From Macrostomum lignano (lineage: Eukaryota), in assembly GCA_002269645.1 (NCBI GenBank), contig NIVC01004549.1, forward strand, positions 1 to 42,289: a DNA stretch of 42,289 nucleotides. The letters run 5' to 3'. Within the stretch, counting starts at the first letter, position 1. The number at the start of each line of letters is the position of its first letter. The notes under the pieces are model-generated. The model was not told the DNA's origin. It saw only the letters and a list, made by a program, of their open reading frames with translations, and made no database searches. Below are positions 2,095-37,696 of this stretch, in pieces. Both the position numbers and the translations under genes were made by a program.

Positions 2095-5664
<3,570 letters not shown>

Positions 5665-6445: not shown

Positions 6446-7433
6446 GGTATGACTTCGGGAATATTACTGATGAAGATTAAAATGCCCTCAGCATAGGGAG
6501 TGAGTAGTTTTTATGAAGGGGCCTTTAGGACAGAATTCTTCACTGCCTGCATAGCGCCATTTATTGTATCTGTATTATTCGCAAAGAATCGACAACAAGA
6601 GGTGACTTGTTAGAGAATTCCAGCATAATACTTTTACCTGCTACCTTCTAAATCACCGATCAACCACTTTCAGGACATTTTTTCACAGCCACCAAAACAC
6701 TATTAGTTCCATATTGTTACCAGAGCAGGGTCCTCACTCCTTACCCTCTAAAATTACAATAAAAAGTTCCCAGTTCTCTCACCAGGTTTCTATTATAAAC
6801 AGCACGACCCTAATTACAAATCCAAATGCATCCAGTTCATGCAAAAATTCTGGCTCCAAGTAGAAAATAACGTTTCAAATATTAATCAGGCTCTCGCTCA
6901 AATCCCACAGTTTTCAACAGCATGAATTAATAAATAATGACAATGACAGCTACTATAACTGATAAAATTATAAGGCAGCTTCTGTCTTTACCAAGTGTAA
7001 GAACACTTGGTCCTATTACTTAAAAATATCCCTCTACTCGGAAATTCCGGGTCTGGCGTCCATGGCTGCCAGCTTGATTGAAGCTGATGCATTGATGAGG
7101 CGAGTCGATTGAAGACGATTCGACAACAGTGAATTTAAAAACAAACTAGCCTATTGTCTTGAACTGTTCTGATTAGTGATTATCCACTTCGTTAGATATT
7201 TAGGTTCTTGTTTATTTTTTAGAAAGCCAATCAATGACCGGTCATTAATTTGAAGTGACATTTCAAACAATGGTTCCCGAAATACTGGCTACAGAAAACC
7301 TGGCTTACAATGAAAGTGTTTTCGCACTTGCAGTGTTGATTGAGGCGGGCTGCACGCTATTAATCTGTAGAGTTAATCAATTTTTACGCTTCTGTTTGTG
7401 CTATGGAACCTGCGACCTATCCAGTTTTCACAG

Positions 7434-12589: not shown

Positions 12590-15565
<2,976 letters not shown>

Positions 15566-16114
15566 ATTAAGGGTCTGCAGATGCATTTAATCTATAATCC
15601 TGACGGGTTATGATTTTAAAAAACCACGGCTTCTAAATCCTGTCCTGACCTGCCGCTGCAGACACTGAAGCAAAAGAATTAAGTGCAGCGCCTAAGGCAA
15701 ATTTATTAAAGCAGAGCACTCGCGATGCACAATGCGCTCGCAACCTTCCTCTGGAACGGCCTATTCAGCTCAGCACTCGCAGCACGATAGTCTGGCATGA
15801 TATAAGCTGGCAAAGAGAAAACTGCTTTGAGTTCGTAATCACCCCATTCTACTGATCTCTCGAACCACCCAACTAACTACCCGTATTTCTGCCTCACAGA
15901 CAATAAACAATCCTAGCTAGAATGCAACTCCATCTAGCATATTACTCAAAACAGACCGAGCACAGTACTGCTGGTTGCCCCCGGAAACCGTAGAGACTGG
16001 ACAGCGCTCGCCTCTGCAGGAAGGCTGGCAAAGCAATGTGCTGGCTTGAGAATAGCGAGCGAGCAGAGATAATTACTGCTTGAGGTTGAGCTGAGCTCTC
16101 ATAACCACCGCTCA

Positions 16115-19623
<3,509 letters not shown>

Positions 19624-21131
19624 TTACCAAGAGTCGGTCGGTACTATCAATAGTGACAACTTCAGTTAATGAATTATTTGGATAGAAGCTTTCATCATTA
19701 ATATCATCTAAAATAAATCAGCGAGACAAATCGGGTATTAATTGGTTAGACAGAAACAGCTAGCAAGTTGATTCGGTGCATTTAATTGGGCAACCGTACT
19801 CGTATGTTTTTCTTACAGAAAGCGTAATCGTTTTTCTGCGAAAGCAGACAGCAGCAGAAGATCATTTAAGAACGAAGCTAGAATACGGAACGTAACATGC
19901 AGTAAATAGTGGACCAGCAGCCAATATAGAAAATTTATGCAATAAATTTGTAAATACCAGCAAGTATTTATGTATTCAACTACAGTCAATAACTGTTAGC
20001 ACACACTAAGTATTCTGCTAGGTACTGACGAATGTGGATTCAATTTAAAACTTACAGGCAGATACCTCGCTATTAAAATTATGCAAAACTGTCAATACAG
20101 TTAGGAAAAATCAACTTATTCACCGAATTCATAACAGTCAGCTTTGCTAAGACGGCTGAGATCGCACAGAGAAACACGCGCAGTGATTAAAACATTTGAT
20201 CCGAAACGAAAAATCGATAAGAGCACAAAGATACAATCAAGGACTACGAGTACGTACTCAAGTAGAATGACGTGGAAGGATGTTTCTTCAAAAAAATTAA
20301 GAAGGCAGATTTTATGAAAAAAATACGTAAGAATGGAGGCTTTTGTCTTTTTCAACACAAAACATTTTACTGCTTTTGATAGGCAGCAGACGCGATGAGC
20401 AAAGTACATGTCCTGTGCCTAGAATCATAGAAATGGCACAGCTTGACCCAGCCGGTTGTGTAAAAGAATGTGCCGCAGAACGGCACAGGACAGGTACGAA
20501 TAGACAATAAACTAACATAGAATCATAACTTTCAAAAACGAAAAGCTCCATGAATGACAACAGAGCTATAAGAAATATCGAAAAATAAACATTAGGTCTG
20601 CCCTCCTATCAAAGCAATAACAAATTTTGTGTAGAAGAAATGAAAATCTTTATTGTCCGTAATTTTTTTTCGTAATACCTAGTTTCTAAAATTCTCCAAG
20701 AAACACTTTCCCGTCCTTTAAGAATTCAGCTGAGAATGCTCAAGACGACAGGAATCAGTCACCTTGAACAAATCGAGAGGTTTGCTTTTCAACATTAATC
20801 TTATGTTGGAACGGGTGTTCTTGGATGGCTGCAATCTTTTAGTACAATCCTTTTTGGCTTTCGAGTATCGAGGTTTTTTTACTGAAGCTTTTTACTCCGA
20901 ATCATAATCTAATCGCCACAAAAGAGTTTAAAACAATAAAAACTGGACATTCGAGTGCAAGCAGTTGCAGTTGCAAGTTGGCGGTTTTCGATTACCTGAG
21001 GGAAAAGTTTCTAACGCGCCGTGTGAGCTCGCGCTATTTCGACTCTACTAGAACTAAATTTTTGTAGCTAAATTAGACCGAAATTTAAATTCGTGTGAGA
21101 TATGTTAAACAGTCCGTCAATAAACAGTTAA

Positions 21132-23408
21132 TTAACAGGTTAGCCAGAGCATAAAGTTTTTAAGCACTACAAAAAACTTTCCCGCAGTTTTTCCCTTTCC
21201 AGTAGCCCTTTGAAACTGCCATTTTTCCTGAAGACTCGATTTCAGCCAACTGGGAAGATCTGCTTCCTTCAGTCTCTTGAATATTTCCAGAGTCTGCTCT
21301 AGATTCGAAGAATAAAATGCGGCGACCAGCAGCTCCTTCTCATCCGAGTCCTCTCTCTCAGCCACATCCCGGATCCAGTCCTGGGCGCGCGCTTCTGGAT
21401 CAGTCCGCAGCTCGAGCCGCAAAGCCCATAGCAGAGCGTCAAAGTTCATATAGAAAATAGTTACTGCCTGACAACTGAAGGGGAAAGCACTCCCTCAGAG
21501 CTCCTGTCAGGAATTCGAGTTTCGGTCGCTGGTCGAACTTAAAGCAGAACTTCCACGCCGAGTCGCAGCTCCTCAGATGCCGCATCACGAACTCCACTGT
21601 CGCTTCAGTCGCCGACTTCCCACGAGACCAAGCAATGCCTCTGCTCACCGAGTGACCTGAGTACAAGCTCACGACTCTCTCTGCAGTTCCTCGGTAGCCG
21701 AACTTCAGGCAAGCTAGCGCTCTGAGAGCCTCCCGAGCTGAGAGGGCACAGTCTGGCAGTCTGGCTATCAGCTCTGTAAGCGATTCCTGAGATCGCGGGC
21801 TGCAGTCACTGTGTGAGAGACGAACAAGACACTCTCTCACCACGTCGTAGATCTGATAGTACTCGAGAGCACTGGACTTCGTGATGGGCATCGACCTCAG
21901 ATCCGGCAGAATTTGGAACGGGTGGAAGTAGAATGTGCCTGAGTCGCTCACAGGTCTGAGACTACCGATGAACTGCTGAAGAAGTTGTGGCAGCCGATCT
22001 ACTACTGTTCTCAGTGTGCTCATGATGCCATCCAAATACTGGTCCACTCTCTCCTTGTCTGCACCCTTGAGGTAGATGGCCGCATCGCTGAGAAAGAAAT
22101 GATTCATGATAACCCGAGATTGGTCAGGTGTGTCAGGTGTTTGTCTGTCATGCTCTCGGCTCTTCTCCACACAGTCGAGCAGCATCTGCAGCGACTGTCT
22201 CGTGAGGCTCACGAGGTTCTCCTTCTTCCATTGCTCGACCGGCGTCTCGTCCACCATTCGGAAAGTGACGGTCTTCACGTGGTAGGACTTCAAGCCTTGC
22301 TGATTGAAACCATCCTTGTGACAGATTAACTTCTTGACCAGGTATTTGAGTGTGACAAAAAGTTGACCTTGCAGGGTAGTAAGACTTCGCAGCATCCGGT
22401 TCTCCAGGAAGGTGGTGCTCACGCGGAGCTCTTCGCCCCCTCGGTCAGGAGAGGCTGCGTGCACCACGTGGCAGGGCAATGAAGCCGAGGTGAGAACCTT
22501 CCGAAGGGCCTCCAGCACCGGATGGGGGATGTTCGAGACGCGGTTTGGCAGCAGCGGCGCGATGGGTGGGTAGCGACAGAGACGGCCTGCTGAGACATTG
22601 TCCAGCGCTGGTCTCAGCGTGAATCCGGGTACCGCATCGGCAGGATTGGAGGCTGTAAAAGCGATTCGGTTCCCGGTTGGGCAATAAACAACTTTAAGTC
22701 TGTGGAGTGATATTTTGGACTGATTTGGAAGATTAAAATTCAAATATAATTGTTGCTCATATTTATTACCTACTCAAAAAGACACATATAAATGCATGTT
22801 GCCAATTTCTTTTCTGTGGGTGTTAGCCATTTAATACTCAGCAGGTTCGATACATCCCTAAATGCTGTGCGTTGCAATTACTTCAGACTGAAGGATAGTA
22901 GTCAGGTTCTTGTTTAGATCTACTTACTGAGTTCAGAAATCGTGCATACAGCGATATTTTCTACACCAGTGCTTTACACACGAAAAGCAAACATCTGCAC
23001 TGCCAGAATCTCCAGCAATCGGGTAAAAGAACTAACAGACCATCTCACTTCCGAGAGAACTCACCGAATCCTGAGCACTGAATGTGCCCATTCACCAACT
23101 CGTGCTGCGCCGGAGCTCCATCGCACTCGCACAGGCCTCTCTGGTGGTATTCTCGGCCGGGAATCAAATACATCACATCAATGTCGGAATTGACGTCAGT
23201 TCTGCCGTCCAGTGTCGTCAGACTGTTGCCCCAGCCTTCTGAGTAGCTGCCGACGACAAAAAAGTCATCGTCGTTCATTCGACTTCTTAGAATCTGCTGC
23301 AGGGCATCGGCAGCCGCGCTCTGCAATGCGGCTCGGGATTCGGTGAAGCCTGACTGCTCCCGTGCTGAGTGCAGCTGCTCGCTCAGCTCTGAGTCACTGG
23401 GACTGAAT
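21132..23408 (-). pseudogene. Mab21/cGAS-like receptor (cGLR) nucleotidyltransferase part of an ANK-cGLR gene; exons 23408-23065 and 22652-~21132, frameshift near 21455
   Basis: VVGSYSEG...SDIDVM NTase motif, EELRVSTTFLE, LKYLVK, LKSYHVKT and MNHFF Mab21 motifs. Splice sites join in frame. A 1-bp shift breaks ...NYFYMNFDALLW. Confidence 0.8.
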
Positions 23409-24339: not shown

Positions 24340-24787
24340 CTCTCAAGTTCCGACTGATCGATTGGTTCTTCCAAAGCGGATGATTTAGCCACTTCTTGAC
24401 TATCAATATATTCTATTTTGGCGTCAGATACTGCTTTGATAAGTGACTTCACAATTTGATGGTGATCATTCATTAATGCAGCGTCCAGAGGTGACTCGCC
24501 AGTGTTTCGTTGGAGATTGACGTCAGCTAGTGCTTTGATGAGTAAGTTCACAACTTGTTGTTGGTGACCAAAATGTGACGCAATGTAGAGAGGTGACGAA
24601 CCATGAACATTTTCTTGAAGATTAAGGTCAGCTTCTGCTTTGATGAGCGAGTTCACAACTTTGTGGTAGCCATTCTGTGATGCAATGTACAGAGGTGAAC
24701 TACCTTGAATTTGCTGAAGATTGAGGTCAGCCTTTGCTTTTATGAGTGAGCTCACAACTTGGTGGTGACATTCTGTGATGCAATGTA
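24340..24787 (-). pseudogene. 3' part of the ankyrin-repeat exon (repeats ~8-11), interrupted by the Polinton
   Basis: SPLYIASQNG...VVNSLIKA repeats. Donor AG|GTGCGA at 24340/24339 is phase-compatible with the acceptor at 23408. A 1-bp deletion lies near 24770. Confidence 0.8.
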
Positions 24788-25720
24788 ACTACGTAATGTG
24801 CAGTTAGAGCAGGGTTTTGGAGGTGAGGTGGGTGTCAGAGCCAATGCAAATTCAGCGCCTATCTAAATGCACTAGACCTCTTCTAATTGGTCCAGAGTCA
24901 TTATGTGAGATATGCATGTAACTCTCATGTAAATCTAATTGTACATGTAATCAGTGTACACTGTGTCGTACAGAAGCGAGGACCAGTAGTACGCATAATT
25001 AGCGCTCCGCCGTTGTTGTACGCACAAGCGCGCCCAACCCCGCAGCATTGGTGTACGCAGAATTAACTGTCCATATTAACTGTCCATATACCAAAATTGG
25101 CAGAATGGTAGCGCCCACCCACCCCATAACTGTCCATATTACTTGTCCATATATACACCCAAAATTGGCAGAATTGTAGCACCCACCCACCCCATAACTA
25201 TGCATATTTACTGTCCATATATGCACCCAAAATTGGCAGAATTGTAGCACCCACCCACCCCATAACTATCCATATTTACTGTCCATATATGCACCCAAAA
25301 TTGGCAGAATTGTAGCACCCACCCATCCCATAACTATCCATATTTACTGTCCATATATACATCCAAAATTGGCAGAATTGTAGCGCGCCCACCCACCCCA
25401 TAACTGTCCATATTTACTGTCTATATATACATCCAAAATTGGCAGAATTGTAGCGCGCCCACCCACCCCATAACTGTCCATATTTACTGTCCATATATAC
25501 ATCCAAAATTGGCAGAATTGTAGCGCGCCCACCCACCCCATAACTGTCCATATTTACTGTCCATATATACATCCAAAATTGGCAGAATTGTAGCGCCCAC
25601 CCACCCCATAACTGTACGCGCAGAATTAGCATCCAAGAAGATATTCTGTTGCCCCTACAAAATTGGCGGCCCCCGCGCGCGCGCATGATGAGTCAGCCGC
25701 TGTAAATCGCTGCTGTCCAC
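24788..25720 (+). repeat. Left TIR (933 bp) with 8 units of a 68-70-bp tandem repeat (~25066-25615)
   Basis: Reverse complement of 35520-36788 apart from array copy number; unit AAATTGGCAGAATTGTAGC..CCCACCCACCCCATAACT..CCATATTTACTGTCCATATAT. Confidence 0.95.
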
Positions 25721-25889
25721 ACTGTTATATCCACTCCTTCCATATTTCAACCCCTCTAGAATTCAGCCCTCGTCGACTGCACTCCGAGACAATTACGTCA
25801 TCCTCAACCCCTCTCACCCAGAGTCAAATAAGTTTTCAAAAGGCGTATATTTACACAAAAAGCCGGCCGAGCTTTGATACGTATACGAT

Positions 25890-26519
25890 TTATTTAGCAT
25901 ACACAATTGGGTGACGACCCAAAACGTTTGAATAATAGCGAGCAGGAGCATTTTGCAAACAGTTTACAATCAAGTATGAGTAGGGGTCGCGAGTAGCATC
26001 CTCATACGTTTTGACAAAACTTTTTGGATTAGTGGGGACAAGCTGCCTTGCAATATGAGACACTGTGCTGGCATCCCGTACATTGCGGAATAAAACGAGG
26101 TAGTTCGAATTGAGCGACTGAGTTCGGTGCTCCTTACCCTTTGCAAACAGGTTTTGCACAAGATACCAAAGTCGGTACCCGACGTGGGAGACTTTGCGCG
26201 TGAAAAAAGTTGTAAAAGCGCCACTCTTTTCCATGGCATGCATTTGGTCGTCGACGACAAGCAGAATATTTGGTTCAGGGACATATTGTTCAGGGTCAAA
26301 TGTACACGAACGAAAATTTACAGGGTACGGCAATTCAAACAGTTCAGGATCCGGATAGTGGCCAAACCAGTCTACGCGAATCGGCTTCGGATCTTGAAAA
26401 AATTCTTGCCTCAATAGGTTTTTCACAAGTGTGGTCTTGCCGCTTTGAGCCACCCCAGCAAAAATTGCCGACGTTTTGGGGGCAAATTTTAAAGAGCCGG
26501 GGTCTATTGTTTGATACAT
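25890..26519 (-). CDS. DNA packaging ATPase (FtsK/A32-like), 209 aa from MYQT
   Basis: Walker A GVAQSGKT, Walker B LLVVDD, FTRKVSH / QN / RNVRD motifs typical of Polinton ATPases. Confidence 0.9.
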   Translation of the reverse strand: MYQTIDPGSLKFAPKTSAIFAGVAQSGKTTLVKNLLRQEFFQDPKPIRVDWFGHYPDPELFELPYPVNFRSCTFDPEQYVPEPNILLVVDDQMHAMEKSGAFTTFFTRKVSHVGYRLWYLVQNLFAKGKEHRTQSLNSNYLVLFRNVRDASTVSHIARQLVPTNPKSFVKTYEDATRDPYSYLIVNCLQNAPARYYSNVLGRHPIVYAK

Positions 26520-26542
26520 TTTGATAGGCCGCCCAATCATAT

Positions 26543-26992
26543 TTATGGATGATGCTGCTTTATTTGTAGACAGTGATTCTGCACCATCAAGTCGTTCTCA
26601 TAAAGATTTTTGCTATAACAGTCGCGCAATATTTTTTCAATCGGCAGACACTCCAGAAAGTGTTTTTCAGCCACAAATATTACATGAGCCCCGCAGGTCA
26701 CACTTAGCTGATGCTGTACAGGATGCCGGTTCATGGCCACCTCCACAGGGACATACTTTGCGATCCACAACTTTAATAAATCTGGCACAGGATCAATACA
26801 CAAGGGGTCAAAAAATGTCACGCTCTCATCGGCATGAAGACAAATCAAAGCCCAGTGAGTGCCTGGTAGATTGCCAGTGTCAAAGTTAATCACGTATGCA
26901 GCAGGATAAACAGGCTGCGGAATCCTGTCAACTGGTGTTACTCGAACAGGGACAGGCAGTATTAGACGTTCTAATATATCTAGACTATTCAT
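26543..26992 (-). CDS. Adenovirus-like cysteine maturation protease, 149 aa
   Basis: YVINFD...GTHW (His), FFDP (Asp), QHQLSVTCG (Gln/Cys). Confidence 0.92.
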   Translation of the reverse strand: MNSLDILERLILPVPVRVTPVDRIPQPVYPAAYVINFDTGNLPGTHWALICLHADESVTFFDPLCIDPVPDLLKLWIAKYVPVEVAMNRHPVQHQLSVTCGAHVIFVAEKHFLECLPIEKILRDCYSKNLYENDLMVQNHCLQIKQHHP

Positions 26993-27042
26993 ATCGGCAT
27001 GAATATGGCCGTTATTCGGGAATAAAAAAGAGTTGTTTGTTT

Positions 27043-28326
27043 CTACACGTAGTCTAGAATAACCTGACGACCGCGAGTGATTTGCACAGTATTGTCAAAG
27101 TAGCCAAACACCAACACGTTGATTCCTGCGGCCAAGGCAGCAGAAAACTTTATTTGTAGCGTCAGATTCCCTCGCTCGCGAGGCATGCTATGCCCACCCA
27201 GCTCCATGTCGGGCATGAGATTCCAGGCGAAGAAGCAGTAGCCAGCTCCATAGTCGGAATATGATACGTCAATATCCAGGTCCCGATTCATCTTTCCTAG
27301 GCTTTTTAGTAGCATAGCATACTCGCGAGCATAGTTATGAACACCAAATCGAGGAGTAAACGGTTGTCCACACAGACTGACTCCGTCCTTATACAGAGCC
27401 ACACTGTCGGCTCCAAATGGCTCAAAATTAAACGGGTTATGTGTAGCCACACCGTTGTAAGCGCCGCTGTTTACCATGCCAACAACCACAAGTTTAGGCT
27501 TTTGTTCAGGAAATATATTGTTGATTGACATGTCCCGAACACCACCAGCCACTGAAGTATTGTGCACAACAAGTCGCTCAATCGGATAGATTGCATTCTG
27601 TTTGCCTAGTTGTTCTTCAATCTCCAATGCCAGTTGAGGGTTTGCCTTGACGCGGCGCACATGTAGTTTGGCACTCTCGAGTACCAGCCGCGCCTCAACC
27701 CCGTCCGCGTGGTTTTTCAAAACGAAGCCGGAATTGTGCATAGTTAGCGTAATTACCATATCAGTGTATGGCAACAGCATTCGGTCGTTGGTAACAAAAA
27801 ATTCTAAACTAAGAGGTCCATAAAGGTGAAAGGTGCGTGAGTTTGCCGCCATCGCCTTGCGGGCTACAAAACCAGGATTTCCAACCACAGCCATTTGACC
27901 TCCAGCGTCCTTTGCGTAGCCCATCATCCTCAGTTGGTTGGTTTTTGAATCGTGTCCGTAATTCAAACACGTGCGAATATAGGCCTTGTAAGCGTGGTTG
28001 TTATTGCTCGACTCTACGTGGGTCCCGTTGATTGTCAACGTGACGTTTTTAAACATGCTTTCAAGGACGTAATTGACCGGCGCAACATTCGAATCAGCAG
28101 CAAGATTTGTGCCATTAGATTGCCTAACGCGGGCCTTAATCTCGAGGTCAATGTCGTTAAGATCGATAAACGTCTCACCACCAACAATCCTAAATTCGAC
28201 CACGCTGGCATTTTCAACACTGGCAACAGGGTGAACTTCTTCAGTGGTGGCGTTAATTGCAGCAATTTGGTGTGCGCGAGGAGCAAATAGCTCGAATTCC
28301 GACTTTGTACACAGGCACTCAGTCAT
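27043..28326 (-). CDS. Major capsid protein (double jelly-roll, hexon-like), 427 aa
   Basis: KSEFELF start, EFRI...FIDL, VNYVLESMFK, YKAYI, NPFNFEPF, YCFFAWNL and GNLTLQIKF are characteristic Polinton MCP motifs. Confidence 0.9.
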   Translation of the reverse strand: MTECLCTKSEFELFAPRAHQIAAINATTEEVHPVASVENASVVEFRIVGGETFIDLNDIDLEIKARVRQSNGTNLAADSNVAPVNYVLESMFKNVTLTINGTHVESSNNNHAYKAYIRTCLNYGHDSKTNQLRMMGYAKDAGGQMAVVGNPGFVARKAMAANSRTFHLYGPLSLEFFVTNDRMLLPYTDMVITLTMHNSGFVLKNHADGVEARLVLESAKLHVRRVKANPQLALEIEEQLGKQNAIYPIERLVVHNTSVAGGVRDMSINNIFPEQKPKLVVVGMVNSGAYNGVATHNPFNFEPFGADSVALYKDGVSLCGQPFTPRFGVHNYAREYAMLLKSLGKMNRDLDIDVSYSDYGAGYCFFAWNLMPDMELGGHSMPRERGNLTLQIKFSAALAAGINVLVFGYFDNTVQITRGRQVILDYV

Positions 28327-28357
28327 TTTTCTTTCAACAGCGGCTAAGAGTGGTGCT

Positions 28358-28747
28358 CTAATAGACAGATCGATTATTGACGCGGGTTTTTTTATCTATA
28401 TTTATAGAGTCAAAAATATCAGAATGTTGGAGTCTTTTTCTCGTTTTTTTGTTAGTCTTCTTTCTACGCCTTTGACCACCGCCGCTACCTCGTTGTGTGA
28501 CTGTGTCTTTGAAAGCATCTTTAGCTGCCCGGACAGAGTTGCGCAATGCCGCTTCTTTCAAGTTCCCGCCTTGATCGAGTGTGTCGCTAACTGTTGTAGC
28601 TAGGGCTCGTGTTCCGTGGCGAAGAATATTTTTGCCAAAACTCTTTAAAATTGGCAGGGCAAATCGGGCAATGCTGCCAAACAGTCCGTTGCCTCGCTGT
28701 GCACCGGAAAATACCGGTAAAGCTCCTCCGATCAAGATTGAAGGCAT
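28358..28747 (-). CDS. Basic virion core-like protein, 129 aa
   Basis: QRGNG and QRGSG motifs, LIGG protease-type site, amphipathic segment, R/K-rich C-terminus; lies between minor and major capsid genes. Confidence 0.7.
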   Translation of the reverse strand: MPSILIGGALPVFSGAQRGNGLFGSIARFALPILKSFGKNILRHGTRALATTVSDTLDQGGNLKEAALRNSVRAAKDAFKDTVTQRGSGGGQRRRKKTNKKTRKRLQHSDIFDSINIDKKTRVNNRSVY

Positions 28748-28791
28748 ATTGCTGATGAATTGTGGTCTTTTATTTGTGAAAACTTCTTTAT

Positions 28792-29946
28792 TTATAGCTT
28801 AATTTCACGAATGTTGATCGATAAAACAGTTTTACCTCGAAGAATCCGATCCATTAGCTTGCCCATATCGTCACAGATTTGCACCTCAATGGTTTTAAAT
28901 GGGTGCTTCACCAACGGTAAGTATGATGGATTGACAAACTCGTAGTACTCTCGTTCACCGTATACCTTTTCATTCAAAGGAATTGCACCAAGCAGGGGGA
29001 CTTTGACGTCTCCAACAATGGCAGAGTCGACAATGTTTGAATAGATGTACATAGTTTGTACACCATTTGTTAAATCGATTGGTCGTTTAGCGGTCTTTGG
29101 AGTTTCATTAAAAGAATCATCTTCACGAAAGCCGAGAATGGCAGCAAGCTCACCAATTTCAAATAAAATGTTTTCAATGGGTTTGTACTCACACCGGTTC
29201 AGAAAAGGGTTGTAGCTGAATGCATCCACTCTCGTTGCTGGACTTATTGGGAGCTTTGAAACGACGCTCCAAAGCGCTCCATTAACATAATTTAAGAGCT
29301 CATTGGGCGTGCGGTAGAATCCTTTAGCAATCCGCAGTGACGTTCTACTAGGCCAGACACTTTTTTCAAACGTTAGAGTCATGGGACTCTCTATGGAGGA
29401 GGATTCCAATTCTATAGCGAATACTAACGAATTTCTTGGGTTTAGTAAAAAACTCGTTCCTTCGATATTTGATTTATTTCCAGCGTCATCGACCTTTTTA
29501 AACATGCTGCGCACATTACTGGACAGCCTAATGTTCGTACCATACCATGATTTGTTCACAATCGAAATTTGGCCTTCCTGTGAACGCTCAATGCAAATCA
29601 TTGCATTATCGTCTTGCTCATATTTTAGAGCTGCAATGATTGCATCAACCACTTCGTTGGCTGTTGATAGCCCCGCGGGGAGAGAAGCCGACGCAAACTG
29701 CCTATACGTGGAGGCGGGTTTTTCTCTAACTTTAATGTCAATCACTTCATCCTCGGGAGCGTTGGTCAGGACATCAACCATTCGATTATCAGGGACGGTT
29801 TTGAATTCTTTACAAAAGTAGATCCGTTCGATGCAGACTTCATGATTCGGAAAGTGGAGGGTGTCGGGCAAATTAATGTTATAATGCGCTGAATTATTCT
29901 CAGGATAGTGCTTAACGCACGCATTGCTAGGTAGGAAAAGATGCAT
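28792..29946 (-). CDS. Minor capsid protein (penton-like), 384 aa from MHLFLPSN
   Basis: LFLPSN...YPENNS...INLP..L..EVCI N-terminus and MYIYSNIV...VGDVKVPLL...YLPL...IEVQICD C-terminus. Confidence 0.85.
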   Translation of the reverse strand: MHLFLPSNACVKHYPENNSAHYNINLPDTLHFPNHEVCIERIYFCKEFKTVPDNRMVDVLTNAPEDEVIDIKVREKPASTYRQFASASLPAGLSTANEVVDAIIAALKYEQDDNAMICIERSQEGQISIVNKSWYGTNIRLSSNVRSMFKKVDDAGNKSNIEGTSFLLNPRNSLVFAIELESSSIESPMTLTFEKSVWPSRTSLRIAKGFYRTPNELLNYVNGALWSVVSKLPISPATRVDAFSYNPFLNRCEYKPIENILFEIGELAAILGFREDDSFNETPKTAKRPIDLTNGVQTMYIYSNIVDSAIVGDVKVPLLGAIPLNEKVYGEREYYEFVNPSYLPLVKHPFKTIEVQICDDMGKLMDRILRGKTVLSINIREIKL

Positions 29947-29986
29947 TGTAATATACCACACGTTTCGACTGTGCGTGTGTGTGTGT

Positions 29987-31054
29987 TCATCCTTGTCTTA
30001 TATTTATAACTTCCTCAACTGGTACAAATGCATTGAACGACTCGGGATAGCCGCGCCAACTAACGAAATGATGAGCAACACCATTGATGACGACATTGCG
30101 ACGCAGAATTTTGTCTATAACAAAGCGGTCCGGTCGAACCGTCTTTGAAAGTTCATTATAGTAGAATCGACCCTCGATTTGTTCTCCAGATAGGTCGGAA
30201 ATGCGATAAAAATGAGGTGGTCCCGGGCATACTTGAGACACAACGTAAACTTCTTCGCTGTACATATCGTATGCTTCCTTGTCAAAGGCTCGACGAGATT
30301 TTGAAATTCTGACAAAGTCCCCTTTTTTGTAAACTGGTTCATCATATTCAGGATCCTGGTAGAGCTTTTCCCACAATTCTTTTTGGTTGTGCAGACCGAC
30401 ACTCGAAGGTTTCATATCAATAGTAGAGTGTACTGTGTTGTTGTAACTTTTAACCAATATTGGCAAATAGTCAATCCAGCGCCACGTGTTTTTGTGCTCA
30501 AAGTAGCGAGCTAAACGTTTTCGGAGAGTCCTAATCAACCTTTCAGCCATATTTGCCTTGTATACAGAGTTTGTGCTGTACATTTTGATACTGTTGGCTT
30601 TCAGTAAGTTCTGCATGCGATTGTTATAAAACTCGGTACCTCGATCAACGTGTAGATATAAAGGCTTAATAGGGAAGTCTTTGATCATGCTTTCAAAAGC
30701 CTTTGGAGTGTCGCTTTTCAATTTTATTGGCTGACAAAAAGCCAATTTACTAAGCACGTCAATTGCAACTAGAATATATCGATGACCATCATTCCATTGT
30801 TCGTATCGTGACATGTCCATCAAATCCGCTTGCACAGTTTCCATGAAGCCTCCTGACATTACTTTTCCGGTTCGGAATTTTCTTTTAACCCTCTTGTGCC
30901 GGGTGTAGCTCGATTGGGTCTTCAGCCATTCGTCGGTTTGGCGTCTCGTCAGGGAGGGGGCCAGCCGTTTGGCCTCCTGATATACACGGGCAGCATTTGT
31001 AAAAGCGGCGTCTCCCTGTTCGTACACTCTCCGAAGAGCGGTTTTCACCCTCAT
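29987..31054 (-). CDS. Retroviral-like DDE integrase with C-terminal chromodomain, 355 aa
   Basis: QADLMDM (D), HVDRGTEF (D), MAERLIRTL (E); chromodomain IDKILR...VSWRGYPESFNAFV. Confidence 0.95.
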   Translation of the reverse strand: MRVKTALRRVYEQGDAAFTNAARVYQEAKRLAPSLTRRQTDEWLKTQSSYTRHKRVKRKFRTGKVMSGGFMETVQADLMDMSRYEQWNDGHRYILVAIDVLSKLAFCQPIKLKSDTPKAFESMIKDFPIKPLYLHVDRGTEFYNNRMQNLLKANSIKMYSTNSVYKANMAERLIRTLRKRLARYFEHKNTWRWIDYLPILVKSYNNTVHSTIDMKPSSVGLHNQKELWEKLYQDPEYDEPVYKKGDFVRISKSRRAFDKEAYDMYSEEVYVVSQVCPGPPHFYRISDLSGEQIEGRFYYNELSKTVRPDRFVIDKILRRNVVINGVAHHFVSWRGYPESFNAFVPVEEVINIRQG

Positions 31055-31187
31055 TCGCAACTAGAGTCGATGCACAGCATGAGTAATTACACTTGAACTC
31101 CACAGACGGTTTGTCTGAGCAAAGCTTTGAAGTTACAGCTGCGGCACCCATGATCCAAAAACAGATTATAAATCATGAAAATGATTT

Positions 31188-31841
31188 CTATTTATAGTTT
31201 TTTAACGTCTCGTATTTTACTGCTGGTTTCTGCCGCCTCTTTGGTTCGCGAAGTTGGTATGAAGCATGCCTGTAGGCATCGCTGCCACGATCTTCAAATT
31301 TTTTAACTTCATTCAGGCCACTGGCTCGGTCTTTGTGGAAGTCGTTGTGGAAATCACTAGTTCCAATTGCTTGCTCGACTAAAAAATCGTCTCGATCAGG
31401 ATCCGTGCCGACTTCTTTTTTCACACTGACTTCTTCTTGTTGGCGTCGCCCTAGTAGAGCTTTTGCAATATCTGCCTCTTCAGCCAGGGCCCAAAAAGCG
31501 GTACTATATTTTGGGCTTGGGCGGTCGCGCCTTTCATTCGATGTAATCTTTTTCAGTAGATCGAAAATATTGCTTCCTGGCCAGGTTTTTCCATCAAATA
31601 CAATTTCCCACGACTTGTTGAACTCCAAATTCGGGTATCTTTCTGTCAACATGTCCCAAACTCGTTGTTGTCGTTCAGGAAAACGATTACTCTTCTTTTG
31701 CTTGATCTGACTTAGTTTATTTTGGAGTTGAGTGTTGTATTCAATGAGTTTTTCATATTCTGTTTTAGATGCAATTTCTCGGGGTGCGCCTTGACTCAGT
31801 CTATTAAATTCTTCTTCTGGCACAACAACGTATTTATTCAT
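31188..31841 (-). CDS. Conserved-type Polinton hypothetical protein, 217 aa from MNKYVVVPEEEF
   Basis: M.K.V.VP.E.F start seen in Maverick accessory proteins; ATG lies 1 nt after the corrected stop of the upstream gene. Confidence 0.6.
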   Translation of the reverse strand: MNKYVVVPEEEFNRLSQGAPREIASKTEYEKLIEYNTQLQNKLSQIKQKKSNRFPERQQRVWDMLTERYPNLEFNKSWEIVFDGKTWPGSNIFDLLKKITSNERRDRPSPKYSTAFWALAEEADIAKALLGRRQQEEVSVKKEVGTDPDRDDFLVEQAIGTSDFHNDFHKDRASGLNEVKKFEDRGSDAYRHASYQLREPKRRQKPAVKYETLKNYK

Positions 31842-31842
31842 T

Positions 31843-32198
31843 TTAGCGACCGAGTAGTCCACCAAACAGGCTTGATATTAGCGGTGCAGCAACAGATGCA
31901 AGGATGGGTAAAAACCACCGACTTGAGGGTTCGAGAGAAGCATATTCTTCTTCCTATTTATAGACAATTTTGTGTCTGCCAATTCACGCAACGATCTTCT
32001 GTATCGCTTTAATCGCAGATACTGTTTCGGAGAAAGATCAATATTTCCCCGGAGTACGTTGTGACTCAATTCACAGAGACAATGAATCAGTTCCTTGCCT
32101 GCACCTCGAATAATTGCCCGCCGAAGAGTGGGACGGGCTTTGGCGAGCTCTGCGAGCTCGCCGCGACAAGAACATAGTCTGGAGATTCCGTTTGTCAT
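31843..32198 (-). CDS. Polinton protein with predicted protease-released amphipathic C-terminal peptide; 1-bp frameshift at 31910-31914
   Basis: ELIHCLCELSHNVLRGNI...LKRYRRSLRELA core. Restoring one base in the A5 run gives QVGG-FLPILASVAAPLISSLFGGLLGR*. Confidence 0.7.
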
Positions 32199-32699
32199 TT
32201 TGTTTAGCACAAAGATGTTGGTTGCAGTGCATCGCAATTTATGCACAATATATTTATAGACAAGTTTCATAGCAGCATTACGATTGTACACCAATTTCAG
32301 TGCAGTGGTAATTGACAATAAAATTACACAACATTTGTGACAGCACTAAAAATCCAAAAGCGACTGTGAGGAGATGTTGCTAGGTGTCGAGACGGGTACA
32401 AAACAAACAATGGAGACACGTACCGATTGTGGAACTTCTTAAATTTTACAATGTCTGCTACGGCAGGATCTGTGTTATCAGAGGGTCATCAATCAAATAT
32501 TTTGACAGTTAAAAATCGAAGCGGGGTCAATCAACCCCGCATTACTTTTGTTGCTGCGTGGTGGAACGTGCCGAGTTGGGATTTTGTTGCTTAGGGGTGT
32601 GGCGATAAAATTGCTGCTGCCGCAGGGCAATAAATCAAAAGTTTTTGACAGTGGTCAGAAGCGGTCATTTTCATTGCAGATTTGGCTCAATTTCATTCA

Positions 32700-32971
32700 G
32701 CCAGCGGGGTGCAGCACGAGTGCATTCCGCAGGCCATCCCGAGCGTGGTTGAGCAAGTCAGGCATGGGTAAAACTACCGTGTTTGGGCGGTCCACGCCGC
32801 AGCAGCCGGAGACCACTGATGAGGTTGACACACCTGGTGTGTACTTGGAGATCTCGAACGCTGGACCCTCCTGGTGCGACTACCTCATCAGTGCTCTCCA
32901 GCTGGTGCAGCGGGGCCCGCACAAACACGGTAGTTGGTCTGTGGGATGCATTCGTGCTGCACCCCGCTGGC
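32700..32971 (-). ncRNA. Candidate long hairpin RNA locus (imperfect palindrome)
   Basis: Arms are reverse-complementary about GAGATCTC (32848-32855); a CTATAAATA box lies 60 bp upstream on the minus strand. Confidence 0.45.
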
Positions 32972-33111
32972 ATGGGTGAGCTTGAAAGATGTTTGTTGCA
33001 GTGTACTGCAATTTGTGCATGATATATTTTATTTATAGACAAGTTTCATAGCAGCTTGTACGTACATACAAATTTTGTTAAAACAGTAAAGTTACGCAAT
33101 AGCTATATGGA

Positions 33112-33591
33112 TTAGACATACAAAACGCTAGTCACATGATCGTACATTTGACAGAGCTCTTTAAAGTTTCGTATACCAAGGAAAACAAGGCGACCATTCT
33201 TTCCGCATAATAAACATTTAGCATTGCGAAATGGAGACTTTATTACTATTCCATTGAAAACTTCGCACTCCCACTTCACCCATTGGGACCCTGAGTATGC
33301 AATTTGGAAAAAATTTGGCCATCTGTCTACTTCAGCGCGGTAAGTACTAGTGGTAACAACAACAGAAATTGGTTTACATTGAGGAAAAAGACGCAAAACT
33401 TGGTTGACTGAGCGACAACCGAATACAATTGCAGACAAAGAACGCTGAAAAAAGTTTATTGTACACTTTCCTATCCTCAAATTGATAAGAGCTCTTGGCC
33501 GGCGAAATGTCCGTGCGCTCGCCCAGTCCAAGTCAGGCATGCAGCTCCATTTCGCGCAAAACACTCGGTTCACGCACTCGACGTTCTGCAA
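33112..33591 (-). CDS. Divergent TATA-binding protein (TBP)-like protein
   Basis: LQNV; [15 protein letters not shown]...[19 protein letters not shown]...[15 protein letters not shown] resemble both TBP repeats. The frame starts at TTG; the first ATG is at 33540. Confidence 0.7.
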   Translation of the reverse strand: [159 protein letters not shown]

Positions 33592-34346
33592 GTAGATTTT
33601 TCGGCAGTTTTCTTTACTTTCGTATCCTTCTTGGGGGCTTTCGGTCGCTTCTTTGATTCGTTGGCTGCTACTACTTTCGATTGATGCTGTCGCTTTCTGG
33701 CCTGATTTTTAGGCACCTTTGGCTGCTTCTCCTTGACAAGCTTTGATGGTTTTTTTGCTTTCTTGCTTACTTTCTTGGAGCCTACCTTGATTTTTGGAGG
33801 TGGCGTCCAATAGCAACGGTCGAATGCCTGTTTGGCTTCTTCGACAAACTGTAGCTGTTGAATTTTTGGCATTGCGGTCAAAACAGCGCCTCGAATCACG
33901 GCCGTGTCGAGAGTAAACAGAATCCTGTAATAGCCGCTCTTGTTTTTGTAATCCTCTACAGGCAGTCCGTTTTGGTCGTACATTTTAAAGTCGTGAGCCA
34001 GCCCAAACGCTGCACTGTCGCCTCCAAACGCTGCACTGTCGCCTCCAAACGCTGGGTTGTAGCCCAGAAGAGCTAGACTTTCACTGGAAAGGTGCTCCGC
34101 CACAGTGTTGAAAGTGTAGGGTATGCAGCTCTCAATGTGTTTTTGTGCAATGATGATGAATTCGCGACCTTCGTTGTCAGTACGCACACCTTTGACAATC
34201 AAAACAGGGACCGCATTGGCCAAGTAGAGAGGCCCCTGTTCGTCATATTCAATGTCAAACGTTTCAACCCCGTTGAAGCTCGGACCTCGCGGTTTGAGTG
34301 CCAGCAGCTCTCGCTTGACGCAGTTGAAGTCTTGCACTGTCTCCAT
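33570..34346 (-). CDS. Hypothetical protein, 258 aa: possible OB-fold SSB plus Lys-rich tail
   Basis: Intact ORF with a TATA box 62 bp upstream; beta-rich YRILFTLD...PKIQQLQF end; tandem AAFGGDS duplication; K/P-rich C-terminal ~75 aa. Confidence 0.55.
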   Translation of the reverse strand: METVQDFNCVKRELLALKPRGPSFNGVETFDIEYDEQGPLYLANAVPVLIVKGVRTDNEGREFIIIAQKHIESCIPYTFNTVAEHLSSESLALLGYNPAFGGDSAAFGGDSAAFGLAHDFKMYDQNGLPVEDYKNKSGYYRILFTLDTAVIRGAVLTAMPKIQQLQFVEEAKQAFDRCYWTPPPKIKVGSKKVSKKAKKPSKLVKEKQPKVPKNQARKRQHQSKVVAANESKKRPKAPKKDTKVKKTAEKSTCRTSSA

Positions 34347-34407
34347 GTCTCTTGTCTGTTTAGAAAAATTTGCAGGTACGGGAGCTTGCAGATGCTCCGG
34401 GCTGGTG

Positions 34408-34415
34408 CTTATATA
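34408..34415 (-). promoter_or_regulatory. TATA box TATATAAG (class 1) upstream of ORF258
   Basis: GGGTATATAAGCACCAGCCC, duplicated at 35067-35074. Confidence 0.6.
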
Positions 34416-34440
34416 CCCGAGAGTCTCAATAAGTTTTGTT

Positions 34441-34968
34441 TTAATTACACGATAACGAGCTTTTTACGGTGTTGTCGTTGTCGAGGATTCCAGAAAAAAT
34501 GAACCTTTTGTTCCTATTTTCGGGTGCTGGCGTTGGAGGCGTGCTGAAATCCTTGCTCCAAGTTGATGGTAGTTCAAGCTTTGGCGGCCTGTTTCTCTTG
34601 TGCTTTGGCAGCCAAATCTTTTGTTGCTCCTCCCACGACGGATTATACAGATCTTGATGGTTCCGAAAACGTATTTTTTGGCGATGCTCCTCACTTAGTA
34701 TCGGAGCCAGTAATCTCTCCATTCGTGCTAAATCAGCTTTGAACCTCATTTTGTCCCGTAGTTGCTCATTTATCCTGGCTGCTGCGTAGTCTTGGCTGTC
34801 GTAGGGACCTTGATCAATTTCCTCGACCTTGGCATTGAAGGTGACTAATCGCTCAGAAATCGGTTTGCTGTGGCAAATGCACAACCAGTCCGCAGATTTT
34901 TTCAACGTCTTATATTCGTCTTTTTCCTCGTTCGATAATAGAGGGTAGTCTCTGGAAATCCAGCTCAT
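34441..34968 (-). CDS. Hypothetical protein, 175 aa
   Basis: Intact ATG-TAA ORF with a TATA box upstream; a decayed paralogous copy lies at 35100-35270. Confidence 0.55.
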   Translation of the reverse strand: MSWISRDYPLLSNEEKDEYKTLKKSADWLCICHSKPISERLVTFNAKVEEIDQGPYDSQDYAAARINEQLRDKMRFKADLARMERLLAPILSEEHRQKIRFRNHQDLYNPSWEEQQKIWLPKHKRNRPPKLELPSTWSKDFSTPPTPAPENRNKRFIFSGILDNDNTVKSSLSCN

Positions 34969-35023
34969 TTCTTGTCAAACACTGCGGGATGTTATTTGAG
35001 CTTAGAAAACTGCTGAGAAGCCG

Positions 35024-35270
35024 AGAAAAGTTTGCAGGTACGGGGGCTTGGTGCTCTGGGCTGGTGCTTATATACCCGAGAGTCTCAATAAGTTTTGTTT
35101 TAATTACACGATAACAAGCTTTTTACGGAGTTGTCGTTATCGAGGATTCCAGTAAAATGAACATTTTGTACCTATTTTTGGTACTGGCGTTGGAAGCGTG
35201 TTGAAATCCTTGCTCCAAGTTGTTGGCAGTTCATGCTTTGGTAACCAAAATTGCTTGTCAAACACTGCGT
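35024..35270 (-). pseudogene. Internally deleted duplicate of the ORF175 cassette
   Basis: 35024-35241 matches 34362-34584; encodes WLPKH...ELPTTWSKDF; CGCAGTGTTTGACAAG is shared with the ORF175 leader. Confidence 0.7.
35067..35074 (-). promoter_or_regulatory. TATA box TATATAAG (class 1) upstream of ORF175
   Basis: Second copy within a ~220-bp direct repeat. Confidence 0.6.
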
Positions 35271-35519
35271 TTTCCACATGATTTTTAATTGAACTTGGTG
35301 AATTTAGAAAACGGCTGAGAATCCGAATTTTCTTTATTTATGGTTTGCTGTCTGACAAAATTGACCTGGCATCTTATTAAACGAGAATATTTCATGCATA
35401 GAATTTAGTGTTTTTAGACCTTGATGACGTGTCTGGCTATAAATTTAGCCTTGTGTCTCGACCGGGTTGTTGCGTAACCCTGCTGCAGGTAGCTATAGCG
35501 AGCCGCGCAGGGCAGAGGG

Positions 35520-36788
35520 GTGGACAGCAGCGATTTACAGCGGCTGACTCATCATGCGCGCGCGCGGGGGCCGCCAATTTTGTAGGGGCAACAGAATATC
35601 TTCTTGGATGCTAATTCTGCGCGTACAGTTATGGGGTGGGTGGGCGCTACAATTCTGCCAATTTTGGATGTATATATGGACAGTAAATATGGACAGTTAT
35701 GGGGTGGGTGGGCGCGCTACAATTCTGCCAATTTTGGATGTATATATGGACAGTAAATATGGACAGTTATGGGGTGGGTGGGCGCGCTACAATTCTGCCA
35801 ATTTTGGATGTATATATGGACAGTAAATATGGATAGTTATGGGATGGGTGGGTGCTACAATTCTGCCAATTTTGGGTGCATATATGGACAGTAAATATGG
35901 ATAGTTATGGGGTGGGTGGGTGCTACAATTCTGCCAATTTTGGGTGCATATATGGACAGTAAATATGCATAGTTATGGGGTGGGTGGGTGCTACAATTCT
36001 GCCAATTTTGGGTGTATATATGGACAAGTAATATGGACAGTTATGGGGTGGGTGGGCGCTACCATTCTGCCAATTTTGGTATATGGACAGTTAATATGGA
36101 CAGTTATGGGTGGGTGGGCGCGCTACAATTCTGCCAATTTTGGATGTATATATGGACAGTAAATATGGACAGTTATGGGGTGGGTGGGCGCGCTACAATT
36201 CTGCCAATTTTGGATGTATATATAGACAGTAAATATGGACAGTTATGGGGTGGGTGGGCGCTACAATTCTGCCAATTTTGGATGTATATATGGACAGTAA
36301 ATATGGACAGTTATGGGGTGGGTGGGTGCTACAATTCTGCCAATTTTGGGTGCATATATGGACAGTAAATATGGATAGTTATGGGGTGGGTGGGTGCTAC
36401 AATTCTGCCAATTTTGGGTGCATATATGGACAAGTAATATAGACAGTTATGGGGTGGGTGGGCGCTACCATTCTGCCAATTTTGGTATATGGACAGTTAA
36501 TATGGACAGTTAATTCTGCGTACACCAATGCTGCGGGGTTGGGCGCGCTTCTGCGTACAACAACGGCGGAGCGCTAATTATGCGTACTACTGGTCCTCGC
36601 TTCTGTACGACACAGTGTACACTGATTACATGTACAATTAGATTTACATGAGAGTTACATGCATATCTCACATAATGACTCTGGACCAATTAGAAGAGGT
36701 CTAGTGCATTTAGATAGGCGCTGAATTTGCATTGGCTCTGACACCCACCTCACCTCCAAAACCCTGCTCTAACTGCACATTACGTAGT
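35520..36788 (-). repeat. Right TIR (1269 bp) with 13 units of the 68-70-bp repeat
   Basis: Reverse complement of the left TIR plus five extra units. Confidence 0.95.
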
Positions 36789-37696
36789 AATGTAGAGAGG
36801 TGACTCGCCAGTGTTTCGTTGATGATTGACGTCAGCTTGTGCTTTGATGAGAGAGGTCACAACTCGGAGGTGACCATTCTCTGAGGCAATGTTGAGAGGT
36901 GAGTAGCCATTGACTTCTTGAAGATTGACGTCAGCTTGTGCTTTGATGAGTGAGTTTACAACTTGGTGGTGACCATTCTGTGATGCAATGTAGAGAGGTA
37001 TCTCACCAGTGTTTCGTTGAAGATTAACATCAGCTTGTGCTTTGATGAGTGAGTTCACAACTTGGTGGTGACCATTCTGTGATGCAATTAATGTACAGAG
37101 GTGAGCAGCCATCGTCTTCTTGAAGGCTGACGTCAGCTTGTACTTTGATGAGTGAGTTCACAACTTGATGGAGACCATTCTCAGATGCAATGTAGAGAGG
37201 TGACTCGCCAGTGTTTATTTGTTGATTGATGTCAGCTTGTGCTTTAATGAGTAAGTTCACAACTTGGTGGTGACCATTCTGTGTTGCAATGTAGAGAGGT
37301 GAACCGCCTTGGATTTGTTGAAGATTGACGTCAGCTTGTGCTTTGATGAGTGAGGTCACAACTTGATGATGACCAAAAAGTGATGCAATGTAGAGAGGTG
37401 TCTCGCCAGTATTTCGTTGAAGATTGACGTCAGCTTGGGCTTGAATGAAGATCCCAACAATTTTTACTTTTCCCAATTCACATGCAAAATGAAGCGGTGA
37501 CATTGATGCTGATGAGCCTATCAACGTTAGAAGCTTTCTGCAGGTATCGTGAAATTTTTGTTGCATTTTCGAACATAATGGCTTCCAGGATCTCTTGTTC
37601 AGTCACATCGAGGCTCTCGCTTTGGCTTTCGGACCTGCCGATGGTCTGCATTAGAACTGCTGCAATCGCTGTCAGGGTTCTTAAAAGAGCTTCCAT
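36789..37696 (-). pseudogene. 5' part of the ANK-cGLR gene (start and ankyrin repeats 1-8), frameshifts near 37515 and 37088
   Basis: MEALL... start, then MSPLHFACELG and 33-aa SPLYIASxNGHHQVVxSLIKAQADVN repeats. The sequence continues seamlessly at 24787 once the element is removed. Confidence 0.8.

Follow-up and report, generated by a model that had tools for sequence, protein, structure and literature searches.

A Maverick-like element and its conserved box

The stretch of Macrostomum lignano DNA considered here (contig NIVC01004549.1 of assembly GCA_002269645.1, 42,289 nucleotides in full, hereafter the window) carries a 12.0-kb Maverick/Polinton-like element at 24788-36788, which interrupts an ankyrin-repeat gene. 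All genes of the element lie on the minus strand, in the order ORF175, ORF258, a gene for a TATA-binding protein (TBP)-like protein, a hairpin unit, PW, ORF217, integrase (INT), minor capsid protein (mCP), core protein, major capsid protein (MCP), protease (PRO) and packaging ATPase. One short motif, CTAYAAATA, precedes the capsid, core, protease, ATPase and integrase genes as well as PW and ORF217, and none is found before ORF175, ORF258 or the TBP-like gene. Below, we describe this box and the TBP-like protein and weigh whether the latter reads the former.

The element has the long terminal inverted repeats (TIRs) and the 6-bp target-site duplication of Mavericks/Polintons, together with a retroviral-type integrase (rve domain, 31.8 bits, slightly below the cut-off of 32.6; E 1.7e-7). 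Its morphogenesis module (MCP, mCP, ATPase and protease) appears to be present, as judged from homologous and syntenic genes in 80 loci. These loci are the top 80 among 523 MCP matches confirmed in a metagenome scan, and their MCPs are 29-39% identical to that of the element. Five Maverick queries for the protein-primed DNA polymerase B (pPolB) gave no match under E 0.26 in the window, and this copy therefore cannot replicate itself; judged by its gene content, it is a polymerase-less derivative or relative rather than a canonical Maverick/Polinton. A helper element as polymerase supplier is conceivable for a copy that is bounded by TIRs and a target-site duplication and has a full capsid module. 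Relatives in four sequencing runs span nearly the whole element, mostly at 90-99% identity, which indicates that the family is multi-copy; among the 40 of 392 variant rows listed from these runs, none falls within a box. The genes that follow a box are listed below.

25890..26540, minus strand: packaging ATPase (Walker A); weak P-loop matches, 23 related frames in Maverick loci
26543..26992, minus strand: maturation cysteine protease PRO; 62 related frames in the loci, labelled by synteny and the earlier note
27043..28326, minus strand: MCP; labelled from the earlier note and family features, with homologous loci
28358..28747, minus strand: core protein with a basic tail; 40 related frames in the loci, labelled by synteny and the earlier note
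28792..29946, minus strand: mCP, penton-like; 47 related frames in Maverick loci, labelled by synteny and the earlier note
29987..31054, minus strand: INT, retroviral-type with a chromodomain (Chromo E 0.015); 39 related frames
31188..31841, minus strand: ORF217, a PZ-like conserved Maverick protein; weak matches in L052 and L054 (E 0.0095), slot shared with PZ-like ORFs
31843..32198, minus strand: PW-family gene; 19 relatives in the loci

For PW, PZ, core, mCP and PRO, the labels follow an earlier note on this DNA and synteny with related loci; the gene at 31843..32198 is what we take to be PW, and ORF217 is presumably PZ-like. The PW reading frame is disrupted near 31915, in this copy or in the assembly, before an amphipathic C-terminal tail.

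The boxes are arranged as follows.

26561..26569, minus strand: box CTACAAATA, within the PRO 3' end, where it falls in codons L-Q-I-K; 20 nt upstream of the ATPase ATG, or 41 nt from the second Met of that gene
27151..27159, minus strand: box CTACAAATA, embedded in MCP, where it falls in codons L-Q-I-K; the PRO ATG follows after 158 nt
28399..28407, minus strand: box CTATAAATA, inside the core ORF, 72 nt before the MCP ATG
28789..28797, minus strand: box CTATAAATA, overlapping the stop codon of mCP; the core ATG follows after 41 nt
30001..30009, minus strand: variant box TTATAAATA, within the INT 3' end; the mCP ATG follows after 54 nt
31189..31197, minus strand: box CTATAAATA, overlapping the stop of ORF217; the INT ATG follows after 134 nt
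31955..31963, minus strand: box CTATAAATA, inside PW, 113 nt before the ORF217 ATG
32251..32259, minus strand: box CTATAAATA, non-coding, 52 nt before the PW ATG
33030..33038, minus strand: box CTATAAATA, heading the hairpin unit with a gap of 56 nt; duplicate of the PW promoter

The earlier note had placed nine boxes on the coding strand, 39-156 bp upstream of nine units. All nine are indeed so placed, although the ninth, at 30001, differs from CTAYAAATA by one mismatch, and the measured box-to-ATG gaps, at 20-158 nt, come close to the range it gave without matching it. It described several boxes as embedded in the preceding gene or overlapping its stop codon; 31189 and 28789 do lie over a stop, whereas 30001 is located within INT, 14 nt short of where the stop codon ends, and not on that codon.

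CTAYAAATA has nine exact matches in the window, eight in the element, all of them on the minus (coding) strand, and one at 1291 in host DNA; shuffled sequence gave a mean of 1.2 matches and at most 4. The enrichment over shuffled background that the earlier note had proposed as a check is evident in the non-TIR part of the element (9,799 nt), where the motif occurs eight times on the minus strand and never on the plus strand (2000 shuffles; mean 0.07, maximum 2); for TAYAAATA, the corresponding counts are nine and zero, with a shuffle mean of 0.37. As a post-hoc control, any 9-mer with one Y/R position was allowed, and the best non-overlapping count in 300 shuffles was at most 7, as against the 8 observed. 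When overlapping matches were counted, at least 8 were reached in 5 of 300 shuffles, an excess that we attribute to overlapping low-complexity runs. Placement is equally non-random, in that a box lies no more than 170 nt upstream of all nine starts, whereas 200,000 random placements gave a mean of 1.7 and a maximum of 7. Seven boxes lie within coding sequence or over a stop, and the embedded boxes use all three reading frames. Resampling of synonymous codons (3000 rounds) yielded a mean of 0.44 and a maximum of 4, compared to the 6 exact coding boxes observed; the boxes are thus selected at the level of DNA. Given that 33030 and 32251 share one duplication of about 70 nt (83% identical), the independent boxes number at most eight. 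Two other late motifs, the baculovirus-type TAAG and the poxvirus-type TAAATG, were rejected as not enriched (19 versus 36.1 and 2 versus 4.4, respectively).

The TBP-like protein and its Maverick relatives

The TBP-like gene and the unboxed genes next to it comprise the following features.

33112..33540, minus strand: divergent TBP-like ORF, 142 amino acids from its first ATG, with the frame open to 33708 and no box ahead
33586..33591, minus strand: acceptor-like TTGCAG inside the ORF258 tail; it ends where two codons of the TBP frame meet and may serve as a splice or spliced-leader acceptor
33570..34346, minus strand: ORF258, conserved in relatives
34408..34415, minus strand: TATATAAG, with the ORF258 ATG 61 nt downstream; canonical TATA of a putative early promoter
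34441..34968, minus strand: ORF175, no family found
35067..35074, minus strand: TATATAAG, with the ORF175 ATG 98 nt downstream; second copy of the promoter at 34408

The TBP-like ORF has five relatives, four of which give Pfam TBP matches, with one (P0018) passing the cut-off. Searched against the PDB, profile A3 retrieved an archaeal TBP at E 4.6e-6, and TBP chains make up 35 of the 38 rows. In the VIA structure search, the top 30 rows were all TBP-containing entries, the best with Z 6.8 and a root-mean-square deviation (rmsd) of 2.1 over 60 residues; the match covers the C-terminal lobe alone, and the model (predicted local distance difference test, pLDDT, 69.5; predicted template-modelling score, pTM, 0.45) was folded from a sequence that excluded the first strand. 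It is at the profile level that homology to the TBP fold (PF00352) holds. The YEPELF loop, the acidic TFIIB-binding stirrup, has both Glu residues invariant in all ten Maverick-type TBP-like proteins, with E-x-E-x-F in 10/10 rows of A5.

The first TBP strand is encoded upstream of the first ATG, in the open frame that overlaps the ORF258 tail, and TTGCAG sits just ahead of it. The relatives P0030 and P0002 are compatible with the overlap across 44 codons, versus no more than 6 in 60 controls, which argues that the overlap between the TBP frame and the ORF258 tail is conserved. The full TBP-like protein could plausibly arise by splicing from the ORF258 unit, with cis-splicing or a TTG start as alternatives; the M. 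lignano spliced leader ends in ATG, according to the accessible text of its description (PMC8629364).

Across the locus set, TBP genes occur in 7 of the 80 loci and PC4 genes in 18, never together, with many loci too short to include the relevant slot. Both kinds of gene mostly occupy one slot, after PRO on the opposite strand, in different clades, as in these examples.

L006:1711-2178, L025:6977-7522 and L054:5325-5942: TBP-like genes in the shared slot
L045:11404-11925, L072:7701-8219 and L038:4516-4989: PC4-like genes in the shared slot
L025:1703-8236, L054:1979-7769, L035:134-3297 and L016:959-1390: stretches bearing the motif YAYGCAAA, described below

In the MCP tree (FastTree, 94 sequences, midpoint-rooted), one half (support 0.998) contains the window and all seven TBP loci, and the other contains every one of the 18 PC4 loci. 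Motifs were counted in 74 of the 80 loci, after the near-duplicates L027, L052, L023, L058, L079 and L071 had been dropped. In the PC4-side clade (38 loci), STATAWAA is found 86 times versus 16.5 expected on the MCP (coding) strand and 9 times versus 14.9 on the other, and TACAWAWR is not enriched (46 versus 43.5); L050 and L019 have canonical TATA boxes at about one per gene. Since embedded TATA boxes are general in Mavericks, promoters for single genes require no viral TBP. The late region of the element differs in its uniformity: all seven of its TATAWA sites read TATAAATA, compared to 11 of 127 in 20 Maverick loci in which no TBP was seen, and among those of the latter having five or more TATAWA sites the commonest 8-mer reaches at most 4/8.

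A second private box marks what we call TBP clade A (nine loci, TBP seen in five), to which L025/L027, L035, L054/L052, L070 and L008 belong. Its TBPs share with that of the element the same F-to-P change and the YEPELF loop, and its box lies on the same gene classes; however, the box is YAYGCAAA, three of the four intercalating Phe are kept, and the TBP gene is located after PRO on the opposite strand. In this clade, TATA shows no excess (TATAWAWR 9 versus 14.2), and YAYGCAAA is found 22 times versus 7.4 expected, whereas the other strand has 1 versus 5.2. Of 32 clade-A starts, 13 have this box ahead of them, compared to 8 of 331 control windows; most of the sites lie in spacers, 19-47 nt (19-70 nt overall) ahead of INT, core, mCP, PW and ATPase. 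All six sites of L025 lie 30-70 nt before a start (one measured to ORF 7194-7844), as do five of the eight in L054, the aligned stretches of these loci being mostly 64-79% identical, and L016, used as a hold-out, has three sites. The L025 TBP gene itself is preceded, 43 nt upstream, by a canonical TATAAAAG, not by YAYGCAAA. Both private boxes, TAYAAATA and YAYGCAAA, take C or T at the third base. Scans of viral_contigs returned no relatives that could serve as a large independent test of YAYGCAAA.

Candidate late promoters and their possible reader

Enrichment, placement and selection within coding sequence together suggest that the boxes very probably have promoter activity. In the mechanism that we favour, RNA polymerase II (Pol II) would use a separate promoter for every virion, packaging and integrase gene, each box being the element at the TATA position, and every such gene would have its own mRNA; the box would be set into the tail of the upstream gene because there is almost no intergenic space. 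The gaps, variable in length, fit the role of 5' leaders, and most upstream ATGs are avoided if transcription begins 25-32 nt downstream of the box, with those at 29990, 31176, 31943 and 33020 falling 5' of the predicted start and that at 32232 at its edge. No consistent initiator was seen at the predicted starts. Host TBP would read TATATAAG and start ORF175 and the ORF258/TBP unit first. The TBP-like protein, having probably gained its N-terminal strand by splicing at the 33586 acceptor, would then bind the uniform (C)TAYAAATA, TAC variants included, and recruit host TFIIB and Pol II via its conserved acidic stirrup, thereby switching on the morphogenesis genes as a late class. We put the probability that these late-gene core promoters are read by the TBP-like protein of the element rather than by host TBP at about 0.55. 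Of what the earlier note proposed in this respect, the protein is borne out by profile and structure matches and the gene partition agrees, while the term "late" and the reading by a viral TBP are what we infer.

Several observations weigh against this reading. Near-boxes CCATAAATA at 35335, in the "early" region, and at 26540 slightly blur the gene partition. The different box that the earlier note assigned to the cassettes nearest the right TIR does precede ORF258 and ORF175, but the two TATATAAG sites share one 223-nt duplication (90% identical), so that the "early" box amounts to a single independent observation. Both C variants (CTACAAATA) occur at positions where T would give a stop and are thus forced by coding, and TBP is known to tolerate TACAAA weakly. 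The INT leader retains two upstream ATGs past the predicted start. The window protein by itself gives no Pfam TBP match, and Foldseek at E 0.001 returned no match for its model, TBP rows having the highest probabilities among the top rows with poor rmsd. Among the relatives, TBP versus PC4 constitutes one phylogenetic contrast. YAYGCAAA was first spotted by eye in L054, L025, L005 and L035, and the 13/32 test includes this discovery set; it is absent from the short clade-A loci L070, L012, L008 and L004 and from the MCP strand of the TBP-positive L006; and the sites upstream of MCP overlap Arg/Lys codons and, taken alone, are not significant against codon resampling (P 0.15-0.19).

The remaining points on that side also favour the strongest rival, under which host TBP/TFIID reads the boxes as it would any ordinary TATA box, in the manner of other Mavericks, the box does not set early and late classes, and the TBP-like protein is otherwise employed, as a decoy for TFIIB or host TBP regulators, a repressor or a sequence-independent activator. 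Canonical TATA motifs stand ahead of genes in Mavericks in which no TBP was seen, as in L050 and L019 and with STATAWAA ahead of 24 of 32 MCP starts in the PC4-side clade. Furthermore, TATAAATA and TATATAAG both match TATAWAWR, and host TBP should therefore bind seven of the nine boxes. The element protein, as aligned, keeps just two of the four intercalating Phe and has Asn in place of the Pro after the third, residue roles that we presume from printed TBP alignments. By contrast, the KSHV protein ORF24 requires all four Phe and that Pro and lacks the acidic residues, according to the accessible text of PMC12529657. What host TBP leaves unexplained is the uniformity of the box (7/7 versus 11/127), the TAC variants at two promoters, given that TACAWAWR is not in excess in the PC4-side clade, and the replacement of TATA by YAYGCAAA in clade A. 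On balance, we regard reading by host TBP as rather unlikely.

Seven boxes lie near gene ends, and the motif could in principle be a 3'-end signal (polyadenylation or termination) of the upstream gene. Four boxes run into AATAAA (26561, 27151, 28789 and 33030), three of which would suit poly(A) addition for PRO, mCP and the TBP gene, and dual promoter/poly(A) use at 26561, 28789 and 33030 is plausible. Yet five boxes lack AATAAA, cleavage at 27151 and 31955, about 110 nt inside coding sequence, would cut the ORF, 32251 follows no coding gene, and the last gene, ATPase, ends with AATAAA and has no box at that end, all of which make this explanation improbable.

Alternatively, the late block might be one polycistronic transcript resolved by spliced-leader trans-splicing, with the box as an RNA processing signal, a possibility that the earlier note itself had raised. 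The Macrostomum group trans-splices about 30% of its genes and has operons, and the top acceptor motif is YTNCAG, as far as the accessible text of PMC8629364 describes them; in addition, contigs of possibly-RNA runs cross gene boundaries, though this is not proof of one transcript. However, YTNCAG is absent between box and ATG in all eight protein genes, with one of its 13 sites on the strand falling in such a leader, that of the hairpin unit, and the embedded-TATA layout is common to Mavericks of many habitats. A single polycistron is thus very improbable. Chance, AT-richness or amino-acid constraint (L-Q-I-K, S-I-N) has a negligible claim on the element as a whole, being rejected by the shuffle, best-of-all-motifs, codon-resampling and placement controls and by the use of all three frames, even though one-mismatch matches are not enriched across the window (34 versus 28.6), LQIK at the MCP box 27151 is retained in the three closest MCP relatives, and single sites such as 31189 (null probability 0.24) could be chance.

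Reading of a private box by the TBP of the element has its closest parallel in late transcription of beta- and gammaherpesviruses, where a viral TBP mimic (ORF24 of KSHV, the herpesvirus associated with Kaposi's sarcoma; BcRF1 of Epstein-Barr virus; UL87 of human cytomegalovirus) acts on a short variant TATA box (TATT/TATTWAA) of structural genes, early promoters being of the host type, as described in the accessible text of PMC12529657. Here too, a variant TATA box is shared by structural, not early, genes, with the near-box at 35335 and the duplicated early promoter as caveats. The differences are that the element has a stand-alone TBP-like domain of about 150 amino acids in 12 kb of DNA, which keeps the acidic residues lost in ORF24 and only two of the four Phe, and a box of the form TAYAAATA rather than TATT. 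No counterparts of the other viral activators in the six-member herpesvirus complex were identified, no homologue search having been aimed at them. By analogy, the element would work like the viral TBP/TATT system without being a member of it, as box, residues and virus group differ.

With animal Mavericks/Polintons (adintoviruses, Polintoviricetes), the element shares TIRs, the 6-bp duplication, the rve integrase, ATPase, protease, capsid proteins, core, PW, the PZ-like gene and embedded TATA boxes; it differs in having no pPolB, in the position of ATPase at the end of the block and in the presence of a TBP-like gene. In the accessible text of the adintovirus preprint and paper (10.1101/697771, PMC8502044), TBP is mentioned solely in figure legends, for MELD viruses, and that of the preprint (10.1101/697771) does not contain the word "promoter". 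A term search of 10.1101/2024.03.18.585575 found no occurrence of TBP, TATA, PC4 or promoter, and a literature search, with subscription journals, Repbase reports, figures and bioRxiv supplements outside its scope, returned no published description of Maverick promoters or a Maverick TBP. Virophages and Polinton-like viruses (mavirus, Sputnik, PgVV) likewise have one motif ahead of many genes of a Polinton-related genome. Their motifs copy the early or late promoter of the helper giant virus and use its machinery, according to the accessible text of 10.1101/2022.07.28.501842, whereas here the box is of the TATA type and its candidate reader is encoded by the element itself.

More tentatively, one branch of animal Mavericks may possess a one-protein late switch, in which a captured TBP and a box peculiar to each lineage (TAYAAATA in this element, YAYGCAAA in clade A) diverged in step; its sister branch may rely on host TATA boxes and a PC4 coactivator encoded in the same slot; the viral TBP may even take its start codon from the host spliced leader, which, if true, would tie the late switch to trans-splicing. 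Whether animal Mavericks are real viruses that run a programmed cycle is a question which a late box, a candidate reader and matched sister clades lacking that reader make testable. If the viral TBP reads the box, the element would provide a minimal counterpart of the herpesvirus system in another virus group, as well as natural TBP variants of altered specificity; if host TBP does so, a general promoter layout of Mavericks is still obtained.

Hairpin unit, termini and flanking host DNA

The remaining features of the element are listed below.

24782-24787 and 36789-36794: 6-bp target-site duplication flanking the element
24788..25720: left TIR, with a 68-bp tandem array of 8.1 copies
35520..36788: right TIR, with a 68-bp tandem array of 13.1 copies
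32700..32971: long inverted-repeat hairpin within the optional 780-nt unit 32264-33043 (z -13 and -12)

The hairpin unit appears dispensable, in that contigs from three of the four runs join 32263 to 33044, omitting it, and depth over it is low in all four. The hairpin has no match in Rfam, and its G-U counts (11 plus, 5 minus) do not favour the coding strand. With its duplicated promoter and 270-nt hairpin, the unit could be a source of hairpin RNA or a small palindromic insertion.

ORF258 has a homologue named from Macrostomum lignano (59% identity) and no relative in the 80 Maverick loci, and no family could be assigned; it is possibly a single-strand DNA-binding protein, as weakly hinted by one family member at E 0.55, a second family search giving no match. 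A 21-nt in-frame duplication in ORF258 (34003-34054) is missing from all four runs. Beside the right TIR, 35024-35326 is a tandem copy of the ORF175 unit that has suffered a deletion and comprises leader, 3' end and promoter, with the remnant of the ORF175 3' end at 35103-35256.

The tandem arrays of the two TIRs are of unequal copy number. Each terminus of the element (24788 and 36788) starts with 5'-ACTACG, unlike the 5'-AG of Polinton ends, and the inner end of each TIR (25688-25700 and 35540-35552) carries TGAGTCA, presumably an AP-1-like motif, with a GC run behind it. Locus L054, in which an ORF of 1290 amino acids occupies the PolB slot, likewise has TGACTCAC as one of its over-represented words. 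Accessory genes in other Mavericks encode a BIR-RING apoptosis inhibitor, a RING protein and an adenovirus pX-like protein (L019:11412-11993, L005:253-759 and L005:1424-1825, respectively). The host DNA of the window contains alcohol dehydrogenase exons (2751-3896), a cytochrome P450 (7434-9150), retroelement remnants (12612-15482), a 3.5-kb simple repeat (about 16100-19700) and a Mab-21/cGAS-like ORF (21439-22395).

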